From Escherichia phage Barry, in sequence record LR880803: DNA of 64,000 bases; one strand, 5' to 3'. Positions 13,778-64,000 of the stretch are shown here, one piece after another. The notes beneath the pieces were generated by a model. The model was not told the origin of the DNA, made no database searches, and saw only the letters and a list, made by a program, of their open reading frames with translations. Position numbers and translations under genes: made by a program. Positions within the stretch are counted from its first letter, which is position 1. Each line of letters begins with the position of its first letter.

Positions 13778-14026
13778 ATGGCAACTATCCGCGCTACTGT
13801 TAACGAGTTCGGTTTTTCCTCTCTGGATGTTAAATTTGACATTGCAGGCACTGATAACGCCTTTGAAATGGTGAAAGGTCTTATCAGTCAGACCATCAAA
13901 GACTATAATCCTTCTGATGAGTTCTGGAAAGAAACAAAACAGGAAGTTCTCAAAGAGGGTTATTCTTATCACTATTGGGGTGAAAAAATTGTCTCTCTGT
14001 ACTACGACAAAGAAGGCACTAACTAA
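13778..14026 (+). CDS. hypothetical small protein
   Basis: 82-aa ORF after cassette SD; followed by terminator. Confidence 0.5.
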   Translation: MATIRATVNEFGFSSLDVKFDIAGTDNAFEMVKGLISQTIKDYNPSDEFWKETKQEVLKEGYSYHYWGEKIVSLYYDKEGTN

Positions 14027-14066
14027 ACGCCGCAGCGGGGCTAAATAGCCCCAGATACCTTTATAC

Positions 14067-14088
14067 AGCCCCTCACAGGGGCTTTTTT
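14067..14088 (+). terminator. rho-independent terminator closing the small-gene array
   Basis: AGCCCCT-CACA-GGGGC followed by TTTTTT; a second hairpin GGGGCTAAATAGCCCC lies just upstream. Confidence 0.6.
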
Positions 14089-14092
14089 ACGT

Positions 14093-15708
14093 CTATCCAA
14101 TCCTTATACAATCCCTTTCCTCACCTTTTCAGAATCTTATCAGACCTTAAAAGCAATAACTCTATAGTCTACTCTATAGCCTTTTATCAAATCAACTTAA
14201 ATATAAGCCAATAACCCCAGAAAGGGGATGGCCCACTTAAACGCTCTATAAAGCGCTATAACAACCTTATCAATCTAACTTAAGGGATTGCATTAACTCA
14301 CCCTTAAAAGCTCTTTACAGGGCTTTATAGAGGCTTAAAAGAATCTTATAAGGTTATGAGCTTTATTGTCTCGTTAGTATCTTGTGAATAGTTAAACAAT
14401 CCCCTTGATAGTCACTAAAAAGTATGTTATAGGGGCTATAAAGTTACTTCAAAGTTACGTAAAAGGGGCTATAAAGTTACGTAAATGCTAACCCCCTTAA
14501 CATTTTCTTAACAATTTCTTAACAATCCCTACATAGTTATGCTTGTTAGAGACTTGTTAGCCCCTTGTTAAATCTCTGTTAAAATCACGTAAAAGCCTTG
14601 TAAGAGTCTTTGACATAGCCTTAAAAGCTCCTGTAAAGCCCTATAAAGAGGTATCTGTACAGTTGGGTGATAGATACTAGGAAGAGACTTAAAAGAGCTT
14701 ATAAAGAGCTATAGAGAGCTTTTAAGAGGTATGTTTAAAGAATCACTAAGAAAGGAAAGGGAACGATAAGAAAGAAGTAGTGACCATGTTAATAGCTTGT
14801 TAAAAAGATTAAACACTTGTTAGAAACTTGTTAATTATCTTAATTGGTATTGTTACCAATCCCTACAAAATAACTCTTAAAAATTAACTTGTTAGCTCTT
14901 GTTAGTCATCTGTTAAGCCTCTGTAAAGACTATGTATCAACTATTAAGAAACTGTTAAGCCCTTGTTAGTTCTGTTAAGAATCTGTTAAGACCTTTGAAG
15001 AGTTGTTAAGAAGATGTGAGAGCTGTTAAGAGATTGTTAAGGATATTTTAAAATTTTGCAAAGTACTTGTAAGGGAGCTGTTAAGGGCTACCAAGCAGAT
15101 ATACATCCTAATCAGATATTTTTCAGTTCCTTCAAAGACCCTAAAAAATGACTTGATAGTCCTATTTTATAAAAATTTTAAGATTCTGAATAATTACCTA
15201 TACAGTCTTTTAAAAATACAGGTAGAAACAGGCTTATAAGATACCTTGTTAGTACCGTGTTAGACCTTGTGAGATAAGGTCTGTAAAGATATCCCTGTTA
15301 AGTTTGTTAAAACAGTCTATATAGAGGCTTAGTAATACCTAGTGAACACCTATAGAGAGTGTCATAGCTGACATAGAGATTAAGAGGTGTATAGGGGCTT
15401 CTAAGAGGGTATAGAGAGACGGTTAAGGTGATTGTATAGGTTGTTAAGAAGGCTTGTTAGAAGAGTGTTTAGAAGGCTTGTTAGAGGGCTTGTTAGAAGG
15501 GTTATACAGAAGGGCTATTAAGACCACTAGATAGTTACTAAGATACTATATAGTACTATATAACTATATATATAGAGAGTAAGATTAAGAAGGTTGTTAA
15601 GAAGGATAGATATTTTGTTCACATATAATGGTGACCCAGAGGTTGGGACAACCGATAAAATTTTATAAAAATTAAAAAGCCCCCAATTAAGGAGGCTCTT
15701 AAGATATT
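14093..15708. repeat. 1.6-kb ORF-free, AT-rich region packed with degenerate short motifs (CTTAAAAG, TATAAAGAGG, CTTGTTAG/CTGTTAAG, GGCTTGTTAGAAG)
   Basis: no ORF of 60 aa or more on either strand; lies between convergent + and - gene blocks. Confidence 0.6.
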
Positions 15709-23288: not shown

Positions 23289-23369
23289 TTTTAAAAGGTG
23301 TTGACAGACTCTATAAAGTTGCTCTAAAGTCTGTCACATCAAACAACAAATGAGAGAAGAGAGTAAAAT

Positions 23370-24784
23370 ATGAGCGAATTATTTAAACATGCGCACCTTC
23401 ATGCAGGTCGAACTGAAAATGGTGCTGTAAACCATACTTCATCAATGTCTGCTCTAGTAAACTTTTACAAAGCTGCTGGTTCAAGCCGTAGCAATGTAGA
23501 AATCTTACCAGACCTGTTCTACAAAGCTTTGCGTGAGGATGTTGATGTTGCAGTTCGTATTTTACTGCATATGCGAGATGTACGAGAAGGTATGGGTGAG
23601 CGTAAAGCCTTCAGAACTGTTTTGCTTCAAGCAATTGAAGACAAAGTTTTAGAGCCTACACAGGTTCTTCGCATTATGGATAAGATTGCAGAACTTGGTC
23701 GTTTTGATGACTTCAAAATCTTCGTAGGTACTCGTTTCGAGACGGATGCCTTCAAACATTTAGAGGCAGCATTACTAGACCCTGCAACAGCAGGTTTGGC
23801 AGCTAAGTGGTTACCACGAGTCAAACCACGTCATAAGCAGTTTGTAAAACGTTTCTGCAAGTTTGCCAACTTGAGTGAGAAAGAGTACCGCACACTGTTA
23901 TCTGCACTGTCTGATACGGTTGAGCAAAAATCTCTGCTAATGAGTTTGGTAAGATTGACTACAGCAAGATTCCTTCACTCGCTGCTGCACGTTACCAAAA
24001 GCTCTTTAACCGCAAAGATGGAGAACGTTACAAAGCTTACATCGAATCACTCTCAAAGGGTGAGTCTAAGATTAACGCTGGTGCTGTTTATCCATACGAT
24101 GTGATTAAGTCTATCAAGCATGGTAATGCAGATGTTGCCAATGAGCAGTGGAAAGCACTACCAAACTGGATGGCAGAAGGTGAGAACATCTTGTGTATGA
24201 CTGATGTTTCAAGCTCAATGTCTTGGGTGAATCTTGGTTCAATCACTGCCCTTGATATTGGTGTATCACTTGCCTTGTATGTAGCAGAACGCAATACTGG
24301 TTGTTTTAAGAATGAGTTAATGGTTTACTCAACAAACCCTCACTTCATCGAACTGAGCGGTGATTTACGAAACCGTCATCGTCAGGTGATGCGTCATGTT
24401 GAATATGGCTCAACTAACTTACAAGCAGCTTTTGACCGTATTCTTGAGATAGGTAAAAGAAACAACTTGACTCAGAAAGATATGCCAAGTAAGCTTGTCA
24501 TCTTCTCCGATATGGAGTTCAATCAGGTTGATGGAGTTAACGGTCGTACAAACTTTGAAGCAATTCAGAGTAAGTACAAGAAAGCTGGATACGAAATGCC
24601 ACAACTGGTATTCTGGTACTTAGCAAACCGTAATGGTACTTGCGAAGTGTCTGTTAAGGATAACGGTGTAGCAATGGTATCTGGTTTCTCTCCAGCCACT
24701 TTAAAAGCTTTGCTTGGTGGTGAGAAGTTTGACCCAATCAGTGTAATGCTCAAAGCAGTAATGATTGACCGTTACATCTGGTAA
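23370..24784 (+). CDS. vWA-domain protein (MIDAS motif) read as two ORFs (23370..24104 and 24101..24784) because of a frameshift at an A5 run near 23926..23930
   Basis: downstream frame has DVSSS (DxSxS) and reads sensibly back to 23924; upstream ORF tail after ~23930 is low-complexity; one extra A would fuse them (...SDTVEQK-ISANEFGKIDYSK...). Confidence 0.5.
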
Positions 24785-24802: not shown

Positions 24803-24831
24803 TTGACAATGTGTTTGATACCCTTTAATAT
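24803..24831 (+). promoter_or_regulatory. strong sigma70-like promoter upstream of the tRNA island
   Basis: TTGACA - 17 bp - TAATAT. Confidence 0.55.
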
Positions 24832-24949: not shown

Positions 24950-25026
24950 CTCTGTTTAGCTCAGATTGGTAGAGCGTTCCGTTTGGGGCGGTAAGGCCGG
25001 AGGTTCAAGTCCTCCAACAGAGACCA
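24950..25026 (+). tRNA. tRNA, anticodon read as TGG (Pro)
   Basis: acceptor CTCTGTT/AACAGAG, T-arm GGAGG-TTCAAGT-CCTCC, CCA encoded. Confidence 0.6.
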
Positions 25027-25033
25027 AATTAAT

Positions 25034-25111
25034 GTTCCAGTAGACAAAATGGTATAGTCACCACTCTTTCAAAGTGGATATCTGAGGGTTCAAATCCCTT
25101 CTGGAACGCCA
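25034..25111 (+). tRNA. tRNA, anticodon TTC (Glu)
   Basis: acceptor GTTCCAG/CTGGAAC, anticodon stem CCACT/AGTGG loop CTTTCAA, CCA encoded. Confidence 0.65.
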
Positions 25112-25203
25112 GTTTTGACAGAAGACCAATTACAGCAAACTTAATCTTATTCATCTGAAGGTAAATCGGACAAAGAAGAGATTTGGTCTGGTCATTAAGA
25201 ATT

Positions 25204-25279
25204 GCGGGTATAGAGAAAGGGCGTCTCACATGTCTCATTAGCATGGTATCGGCAGGTTCGACTCCTGCACCCGCCTCCA
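25204..25279 (+). tRNA. tRNA-like, anticodon CAT (Met/Ile2 type); boundaries approximate
   Basis: T-arm GCAGG-TTCGACT-CCTGC, anticodon stem CATGT/GCATG loop CTCATTA; acceptor pairing imperfect. Confidence 0.45.
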
Positions 25280-25357
25280 ATTTTGCAGAAGACCGTATTC
25301 AGCAACAAAATACTTTTTTGCGGATAAAAGAAAAAACACGGTCTGGCAATGTATTAA

Positions 25358-25434
25358 GGTTAGGAAGCACATAAGGTATGTGCGGTCGCCTGTTAAGCGA
25401 ATGGCACAGGGTTCGAATCCCTGACTAACCGCCA
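25358..25434 (+). tRNA. tRNA, anticodon GTT (Asn)
   Basis: acceptor GGTTAGG/ACTAACC, T-arm CAGGG-TTCGAAT-CCCTG, CCA encoded. Confidence 0.6.
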
Positions 25435-25442
25435 AATTAAAT

Positions 25443-25530
25443 GTGTCGTTATCCCGTAGATGGTAGCGGTGGGGACTGTAAATCCCTTGTCATTGAGACT
25501 CGGTAGGTTCGACTCCTACACGGCACACCA
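25443..25530 (+). tRNA. class II tRNA (long variable arm), anticodon GTA (Tyr)
   Basis: 88 nt; acceptor GTGTCGT/ACGGCAC; T-arm GTAGG-TTCGACT-CCTAC; loop CTGTAAA. Confidence 0.65.
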
Positions 25531-25535
25531 ATAAA

Positions 25536-25612
25536 GGCTATGTAGTTTAACTGGAGAAAATACTCCCCTGTCACGGGAGATGATGTGAGTTCAAGTCTCA
25601 TCGTAGCCGCCA
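25536..25612 (+). tRNA. tRNA, anticodon GTC (Asp)
   Basis: acceptor GGCTATG/CGTAGCC, anticodon stem CTCCC/GGGAG loop CTGTCAC. Confidence 0.65.
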
Positions 25613-25634
25613 ATTTTGAGAGGGCTATTTAGCC

Positions 25635-25672
25635 CCTCCCTTAAAGAGTTCTTACGAGTATTCTTTAAGGGA
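25635..25672 (+). ncRNA. 12-bp perfect hairpin between tRNAs (possible processing signal or small RNA)
   Basis: CTCCCTTAAAGA-gttcttacgagtat-TCTTTAAGGGAG. Confidence 0.35.
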
Positions 25673-26042
25673 GCAGAAGACCAAATACAGCAAGAATGTA
25701 TGAAATTTCAAGCCAATTTAATTTTGAAAATTTAAAACTTGGTCTGGCTCAACAAATTTACAGAAGGCCGTTTACAGCAAAACTTAAACAATCTATTTCT
25801 CCGGTACAGAAAAGGCGAAGGTTCGATTCCTTCACTCGGCAGATGTCGAGTTGGTGTAATGGTAGCACTTAAGATGATAAACAACGGTCTGGTAATTACC
25901 TTTGTAGATAAGTTATTAAGCTTACTTGTGAGTATGCGACCACAAAGGGTGAATGGGTAAATTCTAGATTTAAACCCAAAAAAGGCACATCGCTACAGAC
26001 CTTAAGCAAGTCTGGGTAGCTTATCTACAAAGATAATTTAAT

Positions 26043-26118
26043 GGAAGTGTAGCAGAATGGTGATGCGGCAGACTTTTAATCTGACAGGCGATGGGTTCGA
26101 ATCCCTCCACTTCTACCA
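26043..26118 (+). tRNA. tRNA, anticodon TTT (Lys); weak T-stem
   Basis: acceptor GGAAGTG/CACTTCT, loop CTTTTAA, T-loop TTCGAAT, CCA encoded. Confidence 0.5.
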
Positions 26119-26122
26119 ATAT

Positions 26123-26199
26123 GGTTCAGTCGCAGATAAGGTAATGCAAGGGTCTCATAAGCCCTATGAATGTGGGTTCGATTCCCATCTGAACCTCCA
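26123..26199 (+). tRNA. tRNA, anticodon CAT (Met/fMet/Ile2 type)
   Basis: acceptor GGTTCAG/CTGAACC, loop CTCATAA, T-loop TTCGATT. Confidence 0.6.
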
Positions 26200-26200
26200 A

Positions 26201-26276
26201 GCTGGTATAGTTAAGAAGGTTATAACACTCCCCTGATAAGGGAACATCGGTGGTTCGATTCCACCTACCAGTACCA
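26201..26276 (+). tRNA. tRNA, anticodon GAT (Ile)
   Basis: acceptor GCTGGTA/TACCAGT, T-arm GGTGG-TTCGATT-CCACC, loop CTGATAA. Confidence 0.6.
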
Positions 26277-26290
26277 ATTTCAATAAAGTT

Positions 26291-26319
26291 GTTGACATTG
26301 AGATGTGACTACTTTATAG
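26291..26319 (+). promoter_or_regulatory. internal sigma70-like promoter in the tRNA island
   Basis: TTGACA - 17 bp - TATAGT. Confidence 0.5.
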
Positions 26320-26522
26320 TAACCTTAGTTTTCGTTGCGTAGCGTCTATTTTGCAAATTTAAAATAAATGCAAACGACAATGTTTTTCTGGCAGTAGCTT
26401 GATAGGCTAAACACCAGTGAGGTCTTCCAATCCCTCATCAAAGAATTTGGCGTACTCGCCCACGGTATGATTAATAAGGTGGGCATCTTTAAGGGCTTTC
26501 TAAGAGAGTCTTTAAAGATAAT

Positions 26523-26599
26523 GCACCCTTAGTTCAATTGGATAGAGCAACGGTCTTCTAAATCGTTAGTTACAGGTTCGAATCCTGTAGGGTGTACCA
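26523..26599 (+). tRNA. tRNA, anticodon TCT (Arg)
   Basis: acceptor GCACCCT/AGGGTGT, D-arm GTTCAATTGGATAGAGC, T-arm ACAGG-TTCGAAT-CCTGT. Confidence 0.65.
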
Positions 26600-26742
26600 A
26601 ATAGTTAGCAGATTACTTAGACGGCCTTAGCGGGTCTTCCTGTAGGGAGGTGGTCTGTATCTCATGTTTTCCAGAACATGTAAATAATCTGAGAAGAAGC
26701 TTGACAGTGTTGAGATAATACGGTAAGCTTCGAATTATAGTA

Positions 26743-26820
26743 TGGGACGATGTTAAGACTCTAAGGCATGAGCAACGGCCTCCAAAACCGTTTCAAAGGG
26801 GTTCAACTCCTCCGTCCCAT
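26743..26820 (+). tRNA. tRNA, anticodon CCA (Trp); CCA not encoded
   Basis: acceptor TGGGACG/CGTCCCA, loop CTCCAAA, T-loop TTCAACT. Confidence 0.55.
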
Positions 26821-26837
26821 GCTAAAGATTGTTTCGG

Positions 26838-26924
26838 AGAGAGTGGCGGTCAACGGAGACCAACCAGCCTTGAAAACTGGTGCTGCTGGAAACGGTACGG
26901 GTTCAACTCCTGCACTCTCTGCCA
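26838..26924 (+). tRNA. class II tRNA, anticodon TGA (Ser)
   Basis: 87 nt; acceptor AGAGAGT/ACTCTCT; loop CTTGAAA; long variable arm. Confidence 0.6.
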
Positions 26925-26948
26925 AAATAATTTTTAAGGTGGTGATTA

Positions 26949-27289
26949 TGAAGAAAGGTTCAGTAGGTGAAATTGCTACACAATTAGCTTTCCTCAAAAG
27001 AGGTTATGAAGTATATTCACCAGCTACAGATAATGCAAAGTATGACTTTCTAGTTCACAAAGATGGTTTGATTGAAACTGTTGAGGTAAAATCAACATCA
27101 GTCAAAAGAGGTGAACTTTGGAGAGTGCAACTGAAAAGAGTTCGTTCTAACAAGAATGAAAATAGAATAATGAATTTTGATAACTCTCAAGTTGATTACT
27201 TAGCTGTTTACATTGAACCACTTGATAAAGTCGTCATCTACAAAGCTAAAGATGTCAAGTCTAAGACTGAACTTAGCTTAAAGATTTAA
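26949..27289 (+). CDS. small PD-(D/E)xK-type nuclease-like protein embedded in the tRNA island (Hjc/resolvase-like motif order)
   Basis: ATG at 26949 behind strong SD AAGGTGGTGA; GEIATQLAFLKRGYEV ... YDFLV ... VEVKS matches the E...D...E-x-K arrangement; track ORF 26768..27289 upstream part overlaps tRNAs and is not coding. Confidence 0.45.
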
Positions 27290-27530
27290 AGCCAAGCTTC
27301 ATTCGGATGTCGCTTTGGTATCCCTCGTGTATTGTCGTACACTGTCAAAGCACCTAGTAGGTGTCACGGAGAAGAGATAATATCAAGCTCTCCAAAGGTT
27401 CTAGTCACCGGATTAAACAAGACTATGCAAAGACCTATTTAGGTCTTTTTAGAGGGCTTCTAAGGTTATTAGTCGCTTGTTGTGGAACCTTGTTGCTCAG
27501 GTTCTTAGAAGTTCTCTAAAAAGATTTAAT

Positions 27531-27607
27531 GCACCTATAGCCCAACTGGTAGAGGCAGCAGACTTAGAATCTGCTCAGTGTGAGTTCGAATCTCTCTAGG
27601 TGTACCA
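27531..27607 (+). tRNA. tRNA, anticodon read as TAG, short variable arm (identity uncertain)
   Basis: acceptor GCACCTA/TAGGTGT, anticodon stem GCAGA/TCTGC loop CTTAGAA, T-loop TTCGAAT. Confidence 0.5.
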
Positions 27608-27614
27608 AATTAAT

Positions 27615-27690
27615 GCAGGTGTAGCAAAATGGTTATGCGGCTGACTCTTAATCAGTAAGACGATGGGTTCAATTCCCTCCACCTGTACCA
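27615..27690 (+). tRNA. tRNA, anticodon read as CTT (Lys), paralog of 26043..26118
   Basis: acceptor GCAGGTG/CACCTGT, loop CTCTTAA. Confidence 0.5.
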
Positions 27691-27696
27691 AACAAT

Positions 27697-27772
27697 GGGG
27701 TCATAGTTTATATGGTTAAAATTCGAGTTTTGCAAACTTGGGAACTGAGTTCAATTCTCAGTGACTCCACCA
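27697..27772 (+). tRNA. tRNA, anticodon tentatively TGC (Ala)
   Basis: acceptor GGGGTCA/TGACTCC, T-arm CTGAG-TTCAATT-CTCAG. Confidence 0.5.
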
Positions 27773-27778
27773 ATTAGT

Positions 27779-27853
27779 GCATCCATAGTTTAAACGGGAA
27801 AATTACAGTCTTCCAAACTGAGGTTGAGGGTTCGATTCCCTCTGGATGCTCCA
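27779..27853 (+). tRNA. tRNA, anticodon TCC (Gly)
   Basis: acceptor GCATCCA/TGGATGC, T-arm GAGGG-TTCGATT-CCCTC, loop CTTCCAA. Confidence 0.6.
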
Positions 27854-27860
27854 AATTAAT

Positions 27861-27935
27861 GCTCCTATCGTATAATTGGTTATTACGGTTGCCTTGTAAG
27901 CAACTTATCAGGGTTCGAGTCCTTGTGGGAGCACC
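27861..27935 (+). tRNA. tRNA, anticodon TGT (Thr)
   Basis: acceptor GCTCCTA/TGGGAGC, anticodon stem GTTGC/GCAAC loop CTTGTAA. Confidence 0.65.
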
Positions 27936-27939
27936 AATT

Positions 27940-28028
27940 CAGAGGTCAAGTGAAAGACCGCTTTGAGTCAACTGAAGACCGTAACAAATTCCACGAAGTT
28001 GAGTTAGCGGCACAACTTCAGACCTCTT
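27940..28028 (+). ncRNA. structured inter-tRNA spacer (candidate small stable RNA or processing element)
   Basis: long-range complement CAGAGGTC ... GACCTCT enclosing inner hairpin GAAGTTG...CAACTTC. Confidence 0.3.
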
Positions 28029-28032
28029 TCAT

Positions 28033-28107
28033 ACTCGCTTAGTTTATATGGTAAAACATCACCCTTACAAGATGAAGAAAAAGGTTCAAGTCCTTTAGTG
28101 AGTACCA
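28033..28107 (+). tRNA. tRNA, anticodon TAC (Val)
   Basis: acceptor ACTCGCT/AGTGAGT, D-stem GTTT/AAAC, T-arm AAAGG-TTCAAGT-CCTTT, loop CTTACAA. Confidence 0.55.
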
Positions 28108-28108
28108 T

Positions 28109-28186
28109 GTTCCAGTATCCCAATTGGCAGAGGATGCAAGCTCAAACCTTGTATTAGTGACGGTTCGAATCCGTCTTGGAACACCA
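28109..28186 (+). tRNA. tRNA, anticodon read as CAA, short variable arm (identity uncertain)
   Basis: acceptor GTTCCAG/TTGGAAC, T-arm GACGG-TTCGAAT-CCGTC. Confidence 0.5.
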
Positions 28187-28191
28187 ATTTT

Positions 28192-28267
28192 GCAGGATTA
28201 GTTCAAATGGATAGAGCAACAGTCTACGAAGCTGTTAATAGGGGTTCGAATCCCTTATCCTGCGCCA
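28192..28267 (+). tRNA. tRNA, anticodon ACG (Arg)
   Basis: acceptor GCAGGAT/ATCCTGC, D-arm GTTCAAATGGATAGAGC, loop CTACGAA. Confidence 0.65.
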
Positions 28268-28286
28268 ATTTAAAGAGGCTATTTAG

Positions 28287-28844
28287 ATGAGATATTTGAA
28301 GTATGCTTCATGGATTTTCTTAGCTTTGTTAGAGCCATTTGCAGCAATCTTAGCAGTTATCTTAGCACCTTTTGTAGTTCCATTCTACAGTGAGAAGAAA
28401 GGACACTTACCTTTCGGGTTCAGATGGATGGAGACATATGACAACCCAATTGATGGTGATGAAGGTCACGTTAAAAGATGGGCTAATATTAGATGGATTG
28501 GTAAACTAGGTGTCTACATGCAAAGAGTCGGATGGCTCTGGAGAAACAAAGCTTATAACTTCTCTTACCATGTATTAGGAAGAGATGTAAGAGATGTTAC
28601 TAAGTGGAAAGGTAATATCAACGTAAGTTCTGACCCCGAAGATAATCAGACAGGTTATCTCCTAATGTGGAACAGTAATGCTTGGGGATTATTCGCTTTT
28701 ATCCCATCAATTAAAATCTTTGGTAAACAATTTTACTGGAGAATTTATATTGGATGGAAACTAAAAAGTGTTGTCCCAGAAGAAAGAGCATTCTCAAGGG
28801 AAAGAGTTATGTTGGCATTCTTTATTCATCCACTGAGAAAGTAA
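28287..28844 (+). CDS. hypothetical Trp-rich membrane protein embedded in the tRNA island
   Basis: 185 aa; SD AAAGAGG; N-terminal hydrophobic segment FLALLEPFAAILAVILAPFVVPF. Confidence 0.45.
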   Translation: MRYLKYASWIFLALLEPFAAILAVILAPFVVPFYSEKKGHLPFGFRWMETYDNPIDGDEGHVKRWANIRWIGKLGVYMQRVGWLWRNKAYNFSYHVLGRDVRDVTKWKGNINVSSDPEDNQTGYLLMWNSNAWGLFAFIPSIKIFGKQFYWRIYIGWKLKSVVPEERAFSRERVMLAFFIHPLRK

Positions 28845-28852
28845 AGATTTAA

Positions 28853-28928
28853 AGGGGATTAGTTTACAAGGTTAAAACCTCGGTCTTTGAAATCGAAGAA
28901 GTTGGTTCAATTCCAACATCCCCCGCCA
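28853..28928 (+). tRNA. tRNA, anticodon TTG (Gln); 1:72 mismatch
   Basis: T-arm GTTGG-TTCAATT-CCAAC, D-stem GTTT/AAAC, loop CTTTGAA. Confidence 0.55.
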
Positions 28929-28930
28929 AT

Positions 28931-29009
28931 GCTCCATTACTCCAATTGGCAGAGAGGCCAGACTTAAAATCTGTGTTATGTATCGGTTCGAATCCGATAT
29001 GGAGTACCA
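28931..29009 (+). tRNA. tRNA, anticodon read as TAA (identity uncertain)
   Basis: acceptor GCTCCAT/ATGGAGT, T-arm ATCGG-TTCGAAT-CCGAT, loop CTTAAAA. Confidence 0.5.
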
Positions 29010-29014
29010 AATTT

Positions 29015-29090
29015 AGCGGTATAGCATAACTGGCAATGCAGCAGCCTCTGAAGCTGTCCTATTAAGGTTCAAATCCTTATGCCGCTGCCA
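29015..29090 (+). tRNA. tRNA, anticodon CTG (Gln)
   Basis: acceptor AGCGGTA/TGCCGCT, D-stem GCAT/ATGC, loop CTCTGAA. Confidence 0.55.
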
Positions 29091-29121
29091 CTTCTAAGGA
29101 TTCTTGCGAGAGTCCTTAAAT

Positions 29122-29197
29122 GTGGCCTTATCATAAACGGTAATGACCCATGCTGTGAACATGGTCTATACGGGTTCAAATCCCGTAGGTCACCCCA
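29122..29197 (+). tRNA. tRNA, anticodon GTG (His)
   Basis: acceptor GTGGCCT/AGGTCAC, anticodon stem CCATG/CATGG loop CTGTGAA, T-arm ACGGG-TTCAAAT-CCCGT. Confidence 0.6.
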
Positions 29198-29203
29198 ATT
29201 TAT

Positions 29204-29279
29204 AGTCCAAGTAGCTTATATGGTTAAAGCGCGTGTCTGAAAAACATGAGAAGAGGGTTCAAATCCCACTGGACTACCA
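29204..29279 (+). tRNA. tRNA, anticodon GAA (Phe)
   Basis: D-stem GCTT/AAGC, loop CTGAAAA, T-loop TTCAAAT, CCA encoded; boundaries approximate. Confidence 0.55.
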
Positions 29280-29296
29280 ATTTCAAAGGTGCTTAA

Positions 29297-30030
29297 TGAA
29301 AGAGATGACAGAACAAGGTAAGGAGATTTTTAATCTCTTAAAAACTGGTAAAGGGTTCTCTAACCCGCTTATTACTGGTGCAGCAGTTCTCGGTGGAACC
29401 GTAGCTGCTTCTACATCACTTGTAAGCTCTATTAGTTCTGTAACAGACCCTACAATGAAGGAGAAACTTGTTGCTGCTGGACTTACAACAGTCCTTCTAA
29501 ACAGCTTTACAACAAGCCTTACAAGCACTACAGCAACTACTAAAACTCTGACAGACTACGGTCAAAAATCTATTGATGAGTTTTCATCACGTATGCAGGT
29601 AGCAAAGGGGTATTCCAATGTTATGGGTGCAGCAGGAGAACAAGTTGGTTGTACACCATTCAGTGGTATCATGGGTGTTGCTACAGAGTATGGTCAAAAA
29701 GCTATTGACATGATGAACAGTACACTAGATAGTGTTAATGGTGTGTTAAGTGACTTACAAGATGCTATTGATAAGGGTCTTGATACTGTTTCTGATTTAG
29801 CTAACCAAGCTGTCAGTAAGATTAATGAAGGTATTTCAAAGATTACAGCTTATGCAGATGAAGTTGTGCAGATGATTGAAGAAGAAGCTGCCCTTATTGC
29901 AGAGTACCTTAAAACGAATATCAATGGGTTCTTAGCAGGTATCTTACCAGACTGGTTTGACGATGCTTGTAAAACTGGTGTGATTGACACTATTGCAACA
30001 CCAGAAATGAAGAGCGCATTACAGAAATAA
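29297..30030 (+). CDS. hypothetical Ser/Thr/Ala-rich protein
   Basis: ATG at 29297 (MKEMTEQG...); track ORF start 29233 lies inside the preceding tRNA. Confidence 0.45.
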
Positions 30031-30031
30031 T

Positions 30032-30124
30032 GGAAGATTAACCCTAAAAGGTAAGGGAGCAGTTTGCTAAACTGCCAGTAGCTGAGAAATCGGTGTACCA
30101 GTTCAAGTCTGGTATCTTCCTCCA
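30032..30124 (+). tRNA. class II tRNA, anticodon GCT (Ser)
   Basis: 93 nt; acceptor GGAAGAT/ATCTTCC; anticodon stem GCAGT/ACTGC loop TTGCTAA; T-arm ACCAG-TTCAAGT-CTGGT. Confidence 0.65.
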
Positions 30125-30128
30125 ATTT

Positions 30129-30204
30129 GAATCCGTGACAGAAATGGATATGTGCCTGTCTGCAAAACAGGTTTATAAGGGTTCGAGTCCCTTCGGATTC
30201 TCCA
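30129..30204 (+). tRNA. tRNA, anticodon GCA (Cys)
   Basis: acceptor GAATCCG/CGGATTC, anticodon stem CCTGT/ACAGG loop CTGCAAA, T-arm AAGGG-TTCGAGT-CCCTT. Confidence 0.65.
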
Positions 30205-61892: not shown

Positions 61893-62452
61893 TCAGTGTA
61901 CCTCATACCAGCTTTTACCAACCTTACCAGTACCTGTAACAAGTGTTTCTTTCTTAAGACCTAAGTTCTTAGAAGCTTGTCCATAATACCAGTCAGTAAC
62001 TGCCTTCACCTCTGCCGTCATACTTTCTGGGCATTCCCAACTTGTCTCGTCGTGATAGGAGCACAATAAACGAGCACCTATAGCTGGTTTACGACCGTTC
62101 AACTTCATCAAACCTTCGTCAATCATACGACGGCAAGCAAGGTTAATTGCTTCATTCTGAACCTGCGCCTCACTACCCATAAGTGTGTAATTCAATAACT
62201 TATGTGGAGATTTACACCATAACCACGCTCCAGCGACCTGAATGTACCCACCCTTAGCGATTGCAGCACTCTTGCCGAAAACCTCTTCTAATGCCTTCTT
62301 AGTGGCCTTAAAATCGGCTTCTAAGTTATCAAGTAGTTTCTTAATCTTTGGTAGACGCATATAGTAGGTCTGCTTAGTCAATGCACCTTCCTCTGTAGAA
62401 GCTGCCTTAATGGTTTTGGCAAACTTCTCATCACCTGCACCGAACAATACAT
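61893..62452 (-). CDS. family A DNA polymerase, 3' exon (second half of motif B through motif C)
   Basis: begins (V)LFGAGDEKFAKT, the T7-type continuation of motif B; contains motif C YHDE. Confidence 0.7.
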
Positions 62453-63258
62453 CTGGTCAATACACTCGCAAGGTGTACCAGTTCTCTTATGAACTTCTCC
62501 GCATTTCTACGGAGTGTCGGACTATATCACGTAGTAGTAATACTACCGTTGCACTTGGGAATGGTCATTAGCTTACCACCCTACTCTACTCAGTTCATAC
62601 ATTAAGTATGCTTTTCGATAGTCTCTGAACGTTTCTCTGTTAGGAACTCTAAAATACTATTATTTACTAAGGTATGCAATTGCTCTCTTCATGTTCTCTA
62701 TACTATCTGAGAACAGCCCAAGACCTCTGTTACAGTTGTGACACAGCATACCTCTTACCTGTCCTGTTTTGTGGTCATGGTCAACAACCAGCTTGGCTTT
62801 ATGTCTTGAACCATCCATGATAAAACCTTCACCACCGCAGATTTGACACTTGTGACCACACTTACTTAGTAACTCTTCGACCTCTTCTCTTTCTAAGCCG
62901 TAAGTCCTTAAGTAATAGTTCTTTACCCTTCCCTTTTCTCCACAAGCAGAACTGCAATACGTCTGTCTTGCTGTTCTAGGTGTAAACTGGTTATTGCAAC
63001 TTGGACATATTTTCTCTATGACACGACTTGCTGCTCTTCTGTCTACTTCAAGAACGCAGTTTCTACAACGTTTTTGATTGTACTGATATGGCTTAAACTC
63101 TTCGCCACATCTGGAACAAACTCTTTCTTTATAACCTGCCATTGTCTCTCTCCCATTTCTACTATAGGAGTCCTAACAGAGACTTCGCTGCTGATTACCA
63201 TATCTTTTAAGACTTAGGCTTCCAGCAATTCACAACGTTTTACATGCGCCACTGACGC
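62453..63258 (-). mobile_element. putative group I intron in the DNA polymerase gene, carrying an HNH endonuclease ORF; splice sites approximate
   Basis: motif B split between ...RKKAKNGIY (upstream) and LFGAGDEK (downstream); upstream frame hits a stop 14 codons after IY; 800-bp insert with free-standing ORF. Confidence 0.6.
62660..63142 (-). CDS. HNH homing endonuclease (intron-encoded)
   Basis: HNH core VVDHDHKTGQVRGMLCHNCNRGLG plus N-terminal Cys-rich zinc-binding repeats. Confidence 0.8.
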   Translation of the reverse strand: MAGYKERVCSRCGEEFKPYQYNQKRCRNCVLEVDRRAASRVIEKICPSCNNQFTPRTARQTYCSSACGEKGRVKNYYLRTYGLEREEVEELLSKCGHKCQICGGEGFIMDGSRHKAKLVVDHDHKTGQVRGMLCHNCNRGLGLFSDSIENMKRAIAYLSK

Positions 63259-64000
63259 ATAGATACCATTCTTAGCCTTCTTACGGCCTTTAGTTATCTC
63301 GTGAAGGAGTTCCTCATCCTGTGTCTCTCTACAACGGATAATATCTTCTTCTTTGTTCAATGCAAAATAGATACTGTTAAGTGTATGCGCATCAGTACCT
63401 GTGTAGACTTCATACAAATCATTATCAGCATCGTAACGACAATATTTATCAGCCTCTGGATTTAGGTACTTATCAAGATGCTTGCAGTAGTATCGTCCAT
63501 CATCCTGTTTAGTGAACTCTACAAACTCTTTACCTTCAGTTACCGCTTTGGTGAAGTCTTTATCACCCATAAAGTTACACAGTAAAACAAGCTGTGCAGA
63601 GTTCTGGTCAACTGAAACGATATTAGTCCCTTCCTCACAAATCCACACCTCCCTCATAGGTGCTCCATAGACAGCAGCACCAGACGGTACGTTTACAATA
63701 CCATATTGTGTCATACGTCCAGTTGAAGTACCAAACACCATTGCACCAGCACTAAGGCGACCATCTGGACGAATCTGGTTCAACCAACCTTTTTCATCAT
63801 CCTTTGAGTTCTCAATAGTTCTGCGTCGGTGCATCAAAGTATAGTACTTAGCAATCTTCTGTCCAAGTTCACCTTCAATCGTATCATAAGATGATTCAGT
63901 AAGTTTTGGTGAAGTACGGATTAAGCAAGGCTCAAGCAAATCTGTGTACTTCTTCACAGACCAGTTATGCTCAATGTACTGTACACCTTCATGTTCAACA
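63259..64000 (-). CDS. family A DNA polymerase, 5' exon (partial; continues beyond window end)
   Basis: frame is open to the window edge; DQNSAQLVLL resembles motif A; ends with first half of motif B RKKAKNGIY. Confidence 0.65.

Follow-up and report, generated by a model that had tools for sequence, protein, structure and literature searches.

The two adjacent open reading frames (ORFs) at positions 23,370 to 24,784 of the Escherichia phage Barry DNA analyzed here (64,000 nucleotides of record LR880803, referred to as the window) are, as comparison with related sequences shows, parts of a single conserved gene of 471 aa, which ancestrally carried a run of six adenines (A6) where the window has five (A5). 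The intact protein is Ro60-like on the evidence of a predicted structure and of domain profiles, with a putative helical TROVE-type domain (DUF2828) followed by a von Willebrand factor A (vWA) domain that contains a MIDAS motif (DUF7788). The split between the two ORFs is very probably a non-programmed deletion of a single base from the homopolymer, whether it occurred in the phage itself or arose as an artefact of the deposited sequence.

Reading frames and surroundings of the split gene

The window is part of a Felixounavirus genome, and the species to which Barry belongs is Felixounavirus barry. The main features of the locus are as follows.

23301..23330, plus strand: candidate sigma-70-like promoter (TTGACA, 18-nt spacer, TAAAGT), about 40 nt 5' of the start codon
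23370..23930, plus strand: N-terminal part of the Ro60-like gene, read in its original frame; it covers residues 1-187 as far as ...TVEQK and includes the start of the helical DUF2828/TROVE-like domain
23926..23930, plus strand: A5 homopolymer, site of the one-base deletion, A6 in relatives
23931..24104, plus strand: out-of-frame tail of 57 codons and a TGA (SLLMSLVRLTTARF...IHTM), without homology to the family
23924..24784, plus strand: C-terminal part in the -1 frame, residues 186-471 and the stop, which takes in the last part of DUF2828 and all of the vWA domain (DUF7788)
24203..24217, plus strand: MIDAS motif DxSxS (DVSSS) of the vWA domain, read from the sequence
24950..30204, plus strand: array of 26 tRNA genes (ARAGORN, Rfam), with the same arrangement in FelixO1, Bas63, and other relatives

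The upstream ORF (23370..24104, 244 aa) translates in frame as ...SALSDTVEQK up to position 23930, and the codons of this frame at the site are GAG CAA AAA TCT. Past 23930 it runs on for 57 codons (SLLMSLVRLTT...IHTM) that match no homolog and ends at the TGA at 24102..24104; over the same region, intact orthologs read ISANEFGKIDYSK.... The -1 frame has a TGA at 23921..23923 and from there (AKISANEFGKIDYSK... / AKISANEFGKIDYSKIPSLAAARYQKLF...) is open as far as the stop at 24782..24784. Its earliest possible start codon is the GTG at 24101, which gives a downstream ORF of 227 aa (24101..24784). Adding one A to the run produces a single 1416-nt ORF that encodes 471 aa. The original prediction had placed a gene-splitting A5 run at 23926..23930, and the coordinates and both frames agree with the sequence. 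It had also proposed that one extra A would fuse the ORFs into a protein of about 470 aa, that the downstream ORF reads sensibly back to 23924, and that this ORF contains the MIDAS motif DVSSS. The first of these proposals gave 471 aa when the A was added; for the second, the -1 frame is open and its residues 187-471 match the fjerdesal ortholog; and three residues of the motif (D279, S281, and S283) are invariant in distant homologs. The same prediction described the upstream ORF as low-complexity after about 23930, which stands only in part: the tail is nonhomologous and rich in Leu, Ser, and Thr, but it is not strictly low-complexity.

The TGA of the truncated ORF (24102-24104) overlaps the GTG of the downstream-frame ORF (24101-24103) in the sequence GTGA at 24101..24104. 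Translationally coupled genes show an overlap of this kind, but here the frameshift has almost certainly produced it by chance. No Shine-Dalgarno sequence was found ahead of the GTG at 24101. The candidate promoter upstream of the gene is a pattern match only, from a consensus scan in which it scored 10 of 12 positions, and the same type of sequence is found again 3' of the gene, at 24803 and 24894.

The tRNA array begins 166 nt 3' of the Ro60-like gene. At the gathering threshold, Rfam lists only 23 tRNAs and misses tRNA-Met at 25203, tRNA-Tyr at 25443, and tRNA-Ser at 26838; at the same threshold, it gave no match to Y RNA families in the window.

Some features elsewhere in the window differ from phage fjerdesal, a relative used throughout for comparison. 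The DNA polymerase gene (61893..64000, minus strand) has an insert of about 0.8 kb, at about 62448..63213, with a 160-aa ORF (62660..63142, minus strand) for which Pfam gives Endonuclease_7 (E = 5.9e-20). This ORF is flanked by Rfam matches to group I introns that stay below threshold, at 63114-63227 (E = 0.0013) and 62497-62671 (E = 0.46), and the insert is probably a group I intron with a homing endonuclease of the HNH/EndoVII type. One short ORF of fjerdesal has matches at six places in the window, all between about 8400 and 11400, which indicates repeated sequence segments there. The non-coding region at about 14000-15600 has many short repeats and indels relative to fjerdesal, in which the counterpart is annotated with repeat_regions.

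The intact gene in relatives and its Ro60-like product

The gene region matches 250 Felixounavirus-type records at 80-99% identity, with coverage of at least 80%. A single 1416-nt coding sequence is annotated at this place in JK55, Alf5, skuden, ULIM9, fjerdesal, FelixO1 (ORF42), and Bas63 (bas63_0130), and its neighbors in these relatives are a 372-nt gene on one side and tRNA-Pro/tRNA-Glu on the other. The 244-aa ORF of the window is 100% identical to CAD5160347.1, annotated as "Phage conserved protein" of Escherichia phage Barry. When the fjerdesal ortholog was used as a tblastn query, residues 1-187 matched the window in frame 3 (98.9% identity) and residues 187-471 matched it in frame 2 (97.2% identity). 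In alignments with 4 relatives, and then with 24 related sequences, the window's gene shows just one gap, a single A at this site: the aligned relatives have AAAAAA where the window has AAAAA, with the exception of two low-quality records. With a 101-nt query around the site, all 60 matches listed span 102 nt, and none of them is 100% identical.

The same distribution is seen in other collections. A 27-mer with the A6 run is present in 15 IMG/VR contigs, and exact-pattern scans gave no hits for the A5 26-mer in IMG/VR and GTDB genomes or for an A5 23-mer in JGI metagenomes. A megablast search with a 31-mer that could seed only on A5 recovered one INPHARED record, GE_vB_B3. Altogether, A5 is carried by 2 of roughly 250 surveyed GenBank relatives (MET-P1-301 and GE_vB_B3), both of low quality. 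No copy of the gene was found in complete genomes of E. coli.

Homologs of the intact protein were found by tblastn in 709 phage records, and in 705 of these a single place accounts for 80% or more of the protein; among the 60 rows listed from these 709 records, all but four show a single piece. The hosts of these phages include Vibrio, Aeromonas, Campylobacter, Sinorhizobium, Mycobacterium, Bacillus, Listeria, Enterococcus, and Staphylococcus. The motif at the junction, (V/L)E(Q/N)(K/S)(I/M/L), is kept and unbroken in 8 diverse phage homologs, with E185 invariant, and VEQK(I/M) runs through the single ORFs of distant homologs from Vibrio to Mycobacterium phages. The sole gap is one A, the relatives have A6, and the homologs are single ORFs: the two ORFs of the window are one broken gene. 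Comparison with orthologs had been suggested as a check on the original prediction, and it gave an intact 471-aa gene with A6; the contrary outcome that had been named, relatives split at the same place with both halves conserved as separate genes, was seen in no relative.

Pfam matches to the window's halves are DUF2828 (E = 1.1e-8; 34.8 bits against a cutoff of 29) and DUF7788 (E = 8.3e-44), in that order, and the intact ortholog gives E = 7.6e-29 and E = 2.3e-43, respectively. DUF2828 occupies residues 172-264 of the intact ortholog and so extends across the break. A match to VWA_2 was below threshold (23.3 bits, cutoff 27; E = 1e-4), and PHROG 850 ("RNA-binding protein") was matched over the full length (E = 1e-183). 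The window has the domain order of the DUF2828 + DUF7788 family but has 244 + 227 aa in place of the single ORF of about 450-490 aa that is typical of it; as judged from the sequence, its copy is a disrupted member of the family that would not be functional as written. The metal-site residues D279, S281, S283, T349, and D381 are invariant in the 8 diverse phage homologs.

The relationship to Ro60 is seen mainly at the level of the fold. Neither a Pfam search for TROVE (no hit at E ≤ 1) nor a phmmer search of the intact protein against PDB sequences (no hit) detected it, and a profile of the 8 homologs ranked Ro60 (1yvp) first among PDB sequences, with a weak E value of 0.026 and over the vWA part only. 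We built an AlphaFold model of the near-full-length ortholog P0006, of moderate confidence (pLDDT 68.9), in which 15 helices precede an alpha/beta domain. The nine best Foldseek matches of this model in the PDB come without exception from the Ro60, Rsr, TROVE, and phage Ro60 group, aligned over the full length (441-507 columns) with E values from 1e-7 to 2e-5, and include Rsr (2nvo), Ro60 (1yvp, 2i91, and 9nen), a TROVE protein (9kop), and the Ro60 of Thermus phage phiLo (9l5y). Their TM-scores are 0.40-0.47 and their sequence identities 12-16%; generic vWA/MIDAS domains rank after them. At the moderate confidence of the model, then, P0006 would have a helical (HEAT-like) TROVE-type domain followed by a vWA fold. 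Ro60/Rsr proteins (1yvp, 2nvo, and 9nen; phiLo 9l5y) likewise have a helical repeat domain and then a vWA domain with a MIDAS motif, but unlike them, the window's family is assigned by Pfam to DUF2828 and not to TROVE. Mycobacteriophage homologs are annotated as "Ro-like RNA binding protein." The designation of this locus as a vWA-domain gene in the original prediction was thus correct as far as it went, the protein being more than that: a predicted Ro60/TROVE-like RNA-binding protein with the vWA domain at its C terminus.

Two relatives allow a closer comparison. Salmonella phage FelixO1 ORF42 (Felix01p079, NP_944857.1, "RNA-binding protein") is the same gene, with the same neighbors and the same domain pair; 12 of the 471 residues are different in the restored window protein, and the missing A is the only structural difference. 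The ortholog in Bas63 (Escherichia phage JohannRWettstein), gp130 or bas63_0130, has the same 1416 nt, lies directly 5' of tRNA-Pro and tRNA-Glu, and differs from the restored window protein in 11 residues out of 471. The run in Bas63 is A6 and its ORF is intact, whereas the window copy is frameshifted past residue 187. In a PhageMaP preprint (PMC11482910), Bas63 gp130 is reported to resemble Ro60 and to be encoded 5' of tRNA genes. It counters the Ppl defence and also confers Ppl resistance on phage T7. The gene 130 deletion mutant of Bas63 was made and propagated; it forms very small plaques on a Ppl-expressing host and is rescued by complementation (PMC11482910). The same work puts forward, as a hypothesis, a link between the Ro60-like protein and tRNA-like RNAs, in which some of the "tRNAs" may be Y-RNA-like partners.

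Origin of the one-base deletion

The quality of the window sequence was judged by an ORF-level frameshift scan against fjerdesal. Among the 106 fjerdesal ORFs of at least 80 aa that match the window, the sole true frameshift is the one in the Ro60-like gene. A raw list of indels relative to fjerdesal was also considered as quality evidence and was rejected, being mostly alignment noise in divergent intergenic regions. There are 54 runs of 6 bases in the 64 kb of the window, 55 in 69 kb of fjerdesal, and 17 in 45 kb of MET-P1-301, the last being half the expected number; the window is without homopolymer compression, unlike a generally error-prone assembly. In all, the window (64 kb, 39% G+C) has 204 homopolymers of length 5 and 54 of length 6 but nothing longer. 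The picture in fjerdesal is much the same, except that three of its runs exceed six bases (7, 13, and 14), and these genomes appear to avoid runs of more than six.

In the part of the gene downstream of the shift, the window differs from its closest relative, JK55, by 14 synonymous and 4 nonsynonymous codons. The changes private to the window are 2 synonymous and 2 conservative nonsynonymous ones, which is typical of the relatives. There is no stop or further indel in the 285 codons downstream of the shift. We considered an older, real pseudogene and rejected it after looking for relaxed selection downstream of the shift and seeing no decay; the event must therefore be very recent, or else not real.

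The other A5 records are of a different quality. MET-P1-301 (PV700625.1) is 95.5% identical to the window without gaps and is annotated with an identical pair of 244- and 227-aa ORFs. It shares with GE_vB_B3 (MG969406.1) the identical A6-to-A5 change, but both have many other frameshifts where the window has only the one. In MET-P1-301, 9 of 45 comparable ORFs are frameshifted, including those for rIIA, dNMP kinase, and DNA polymerase (three shifts). GE_vB_B3 is labeled UNVERIFIED and has an extra TT insertion in the gene, and GE_vB_7A, a third UNVERIFIED record, has lost an A in the gene's other A6 run. MG969404.1 is, like PV700625.1 and MG969406.1, a frameshifted public record; the errors in these three look like uncorrected homopolymer errors, and the records look unreliable for gene-content comparison. 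Since both of the other A5 GenBank records are demonstrably poor, base callers evidently do miscount this A tract. Three Logan products, read from the protein products alone, also vary here: P0013 and P0014 have the A5-type out-of-frame tail in different backgrounds, and P0012 reads ...VEQKKSLLMSL, with an extra Lys that implies A8. The contigs behind P0012, P0013, and P0014 are 23, 5.1, and 32.5 kb long, respectively.

We place slightly ahead of a consensus error, and give about an even chance, the reading in which A5 is a genuine and very recent loss-of-function allele in the sequenced Barry stock. The deletion would then be in the phage DNA itself, not just in the consensus, and we infer that the allele is null. 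Replication slippage on the homopolymer may have removed one A from the ancestral A6 and left the A5 at 23926..23930; translation would leave the frame past Lys187, add 57 unrelated residues, and stop, which would deprive the product of its vWA domain and of the last part of the helical one. The loss would be tolerated because the gene is required only on hosts with particular defences, such as Ppl, and tolerance of a null allele is expected because the Bas63 ortholog, which counters Ppl, can be deleted. This reading is favored by the otherwise clean sequence of the window and by the tract-length variants that recur at this site in other assemblies (P0012-P0014). For a consensus that is short by one base, with A6 and an intact gene in the phage DNA, we rate the probability as somewhat under one half. 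The lesion is a one-base length change in a homopolymer class that is among the longest present (the window maximum is 6), the low-quality MET-P1-301 and GE_vB_B3 have the same under-call and GE_vB_7A lacks an A in the other A6, the downstream frame is perfectly kept with a pattern of purifying selection, and no independent A5 was found in IMG/VR, GTDB genomes, or JGI metagenomes. Set against this are the cleanness of the rest of the window, which has no other frameshift in the 106 ORFs and a normal density of 6-base runs, and the coincidence that one random error among about 54 candidate runs would have fallen in a gene known to be dispensable. Literature searches on DUF2828 and on phage Barry gave no information about this gene or about the sequencing of Barry.

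Of the three origins that the original prediction had offered, an error of sequencing and a recent mutation that inactivates the gene both fit the data, and -1 slippage is disfavored. If the A5 allele still gave some full-length protein, through a -1 slip of the ribosome or addition of an A by RNA polymerase, either route would restore the exact wild-type ...VEQK-ISANEF..., the slip of tRNA-Lys on A_AAA (AAA 23928-30 re-pairing with 23927-29) is geometrically possible, and the phage has its own tRNA-Lys(UUU). The site, G_CAA_AAA_T, is not an X_XXY_YYZ heptamer, however, and the P-site CAA is unable to re-pair in the -1 frame (GCA); the 80 nt downstream have no significant RNA structure (minimum free energy -17.1 kcal/mol, z = -1.23, with 23 of 200 shuffles as good); and the two-frame arrangement is not conserved, the relatives having A6 and a single ORF. 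Programmed -1 frameshifting was rejected on this codon context and on the lack of RNA structure and of conservation, and recoding of any kind is very improbable, with an output that would at best be a low-level or background leak. The view that five A's are short for efficient programmed slippage was well founded: they are also far below the run length of about 8-9 or more needed for efficient transcriptional slippage. Contingency and slippage tracts, too, are usually at least roughly 8 nt long, compared with 5 here and 6 in the relatives. That the tract is a selected hypermutable site toggling an anti-defence gene, as in phase variation, is extremely unlikely to our minds. It would account for A5 in Barry, MET-P1-301, GE_vB_B3, P0013, and P0014 and A8 in P0012, in different backgrounds, and would suit a gene that is conditionally useful (PMC11482910), but A6 is short for such a tract, two or more of the variants are from assemblies full of errors, and P0012-P0014 are known from their products alone. 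Furthermore, A5 is present in just 2 of about 250 GenBank relatives, both of low quality, A6 is present in 15 of 15 IMG/VR contigs, and CAA AAA ATC simply codes for the conserved Q-K-I. A broader version, in which the A6 tract is a recurrent selected hot spot, phages repeatedly turn the gene off (A5 or A8) wherever it carries a cost or a host defence senses it, and Barry is a natural "off" variant that could revert, or leak by -1 slippage, to the exact wild-type protein, is in our estimation very unlikely. Two true genes, an N-terminal helical protein and a separate vWA protein made, for example, by reinitiation at the GTG at 24101, have next to no chance of being the explanation. The stop/start overlap and the annotation of separate ORFs in the Barry source record (from protein database names) and in MET-P1-301 would fit such an arrangement; however, no high-quality relative is split at this point, residues 188-238 would be lost and DUF2828 crosses the junction, the GTG lacks a Shine-Dalgarno sequence, and the 57-residue tail of the first ORF is conserved coding sequence read out of frame. 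No related lineage with a split and with both halves under purifying selection was seen.

Consequences for phage Barry

The split in Barry is an ordinary loss of one base from a homopolymer, in a phage gene that is already known, is conserved, and can be dispensed with under some conditions, and it involves no new biology. The annotation of the locus should show a single gene, marked as frameshifted or disrupted, unless the consensus is corrected instead; two separate "conserved phage proteins" should not be listed. Should the deletion be real, the window copy is predicted to act like the Bas63 gene 130 deletion mutant, giving small plaques on a Ppl host, and Barry would be a natural knockout of a Ro60-like Ppl counter-defence gene. 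In that case it would offer a convenient isogenic-type control for studies of the gene, and it should be handicapped on Ppl hosts, which bears on the prediction of host range and on the choice of phages for therapy.
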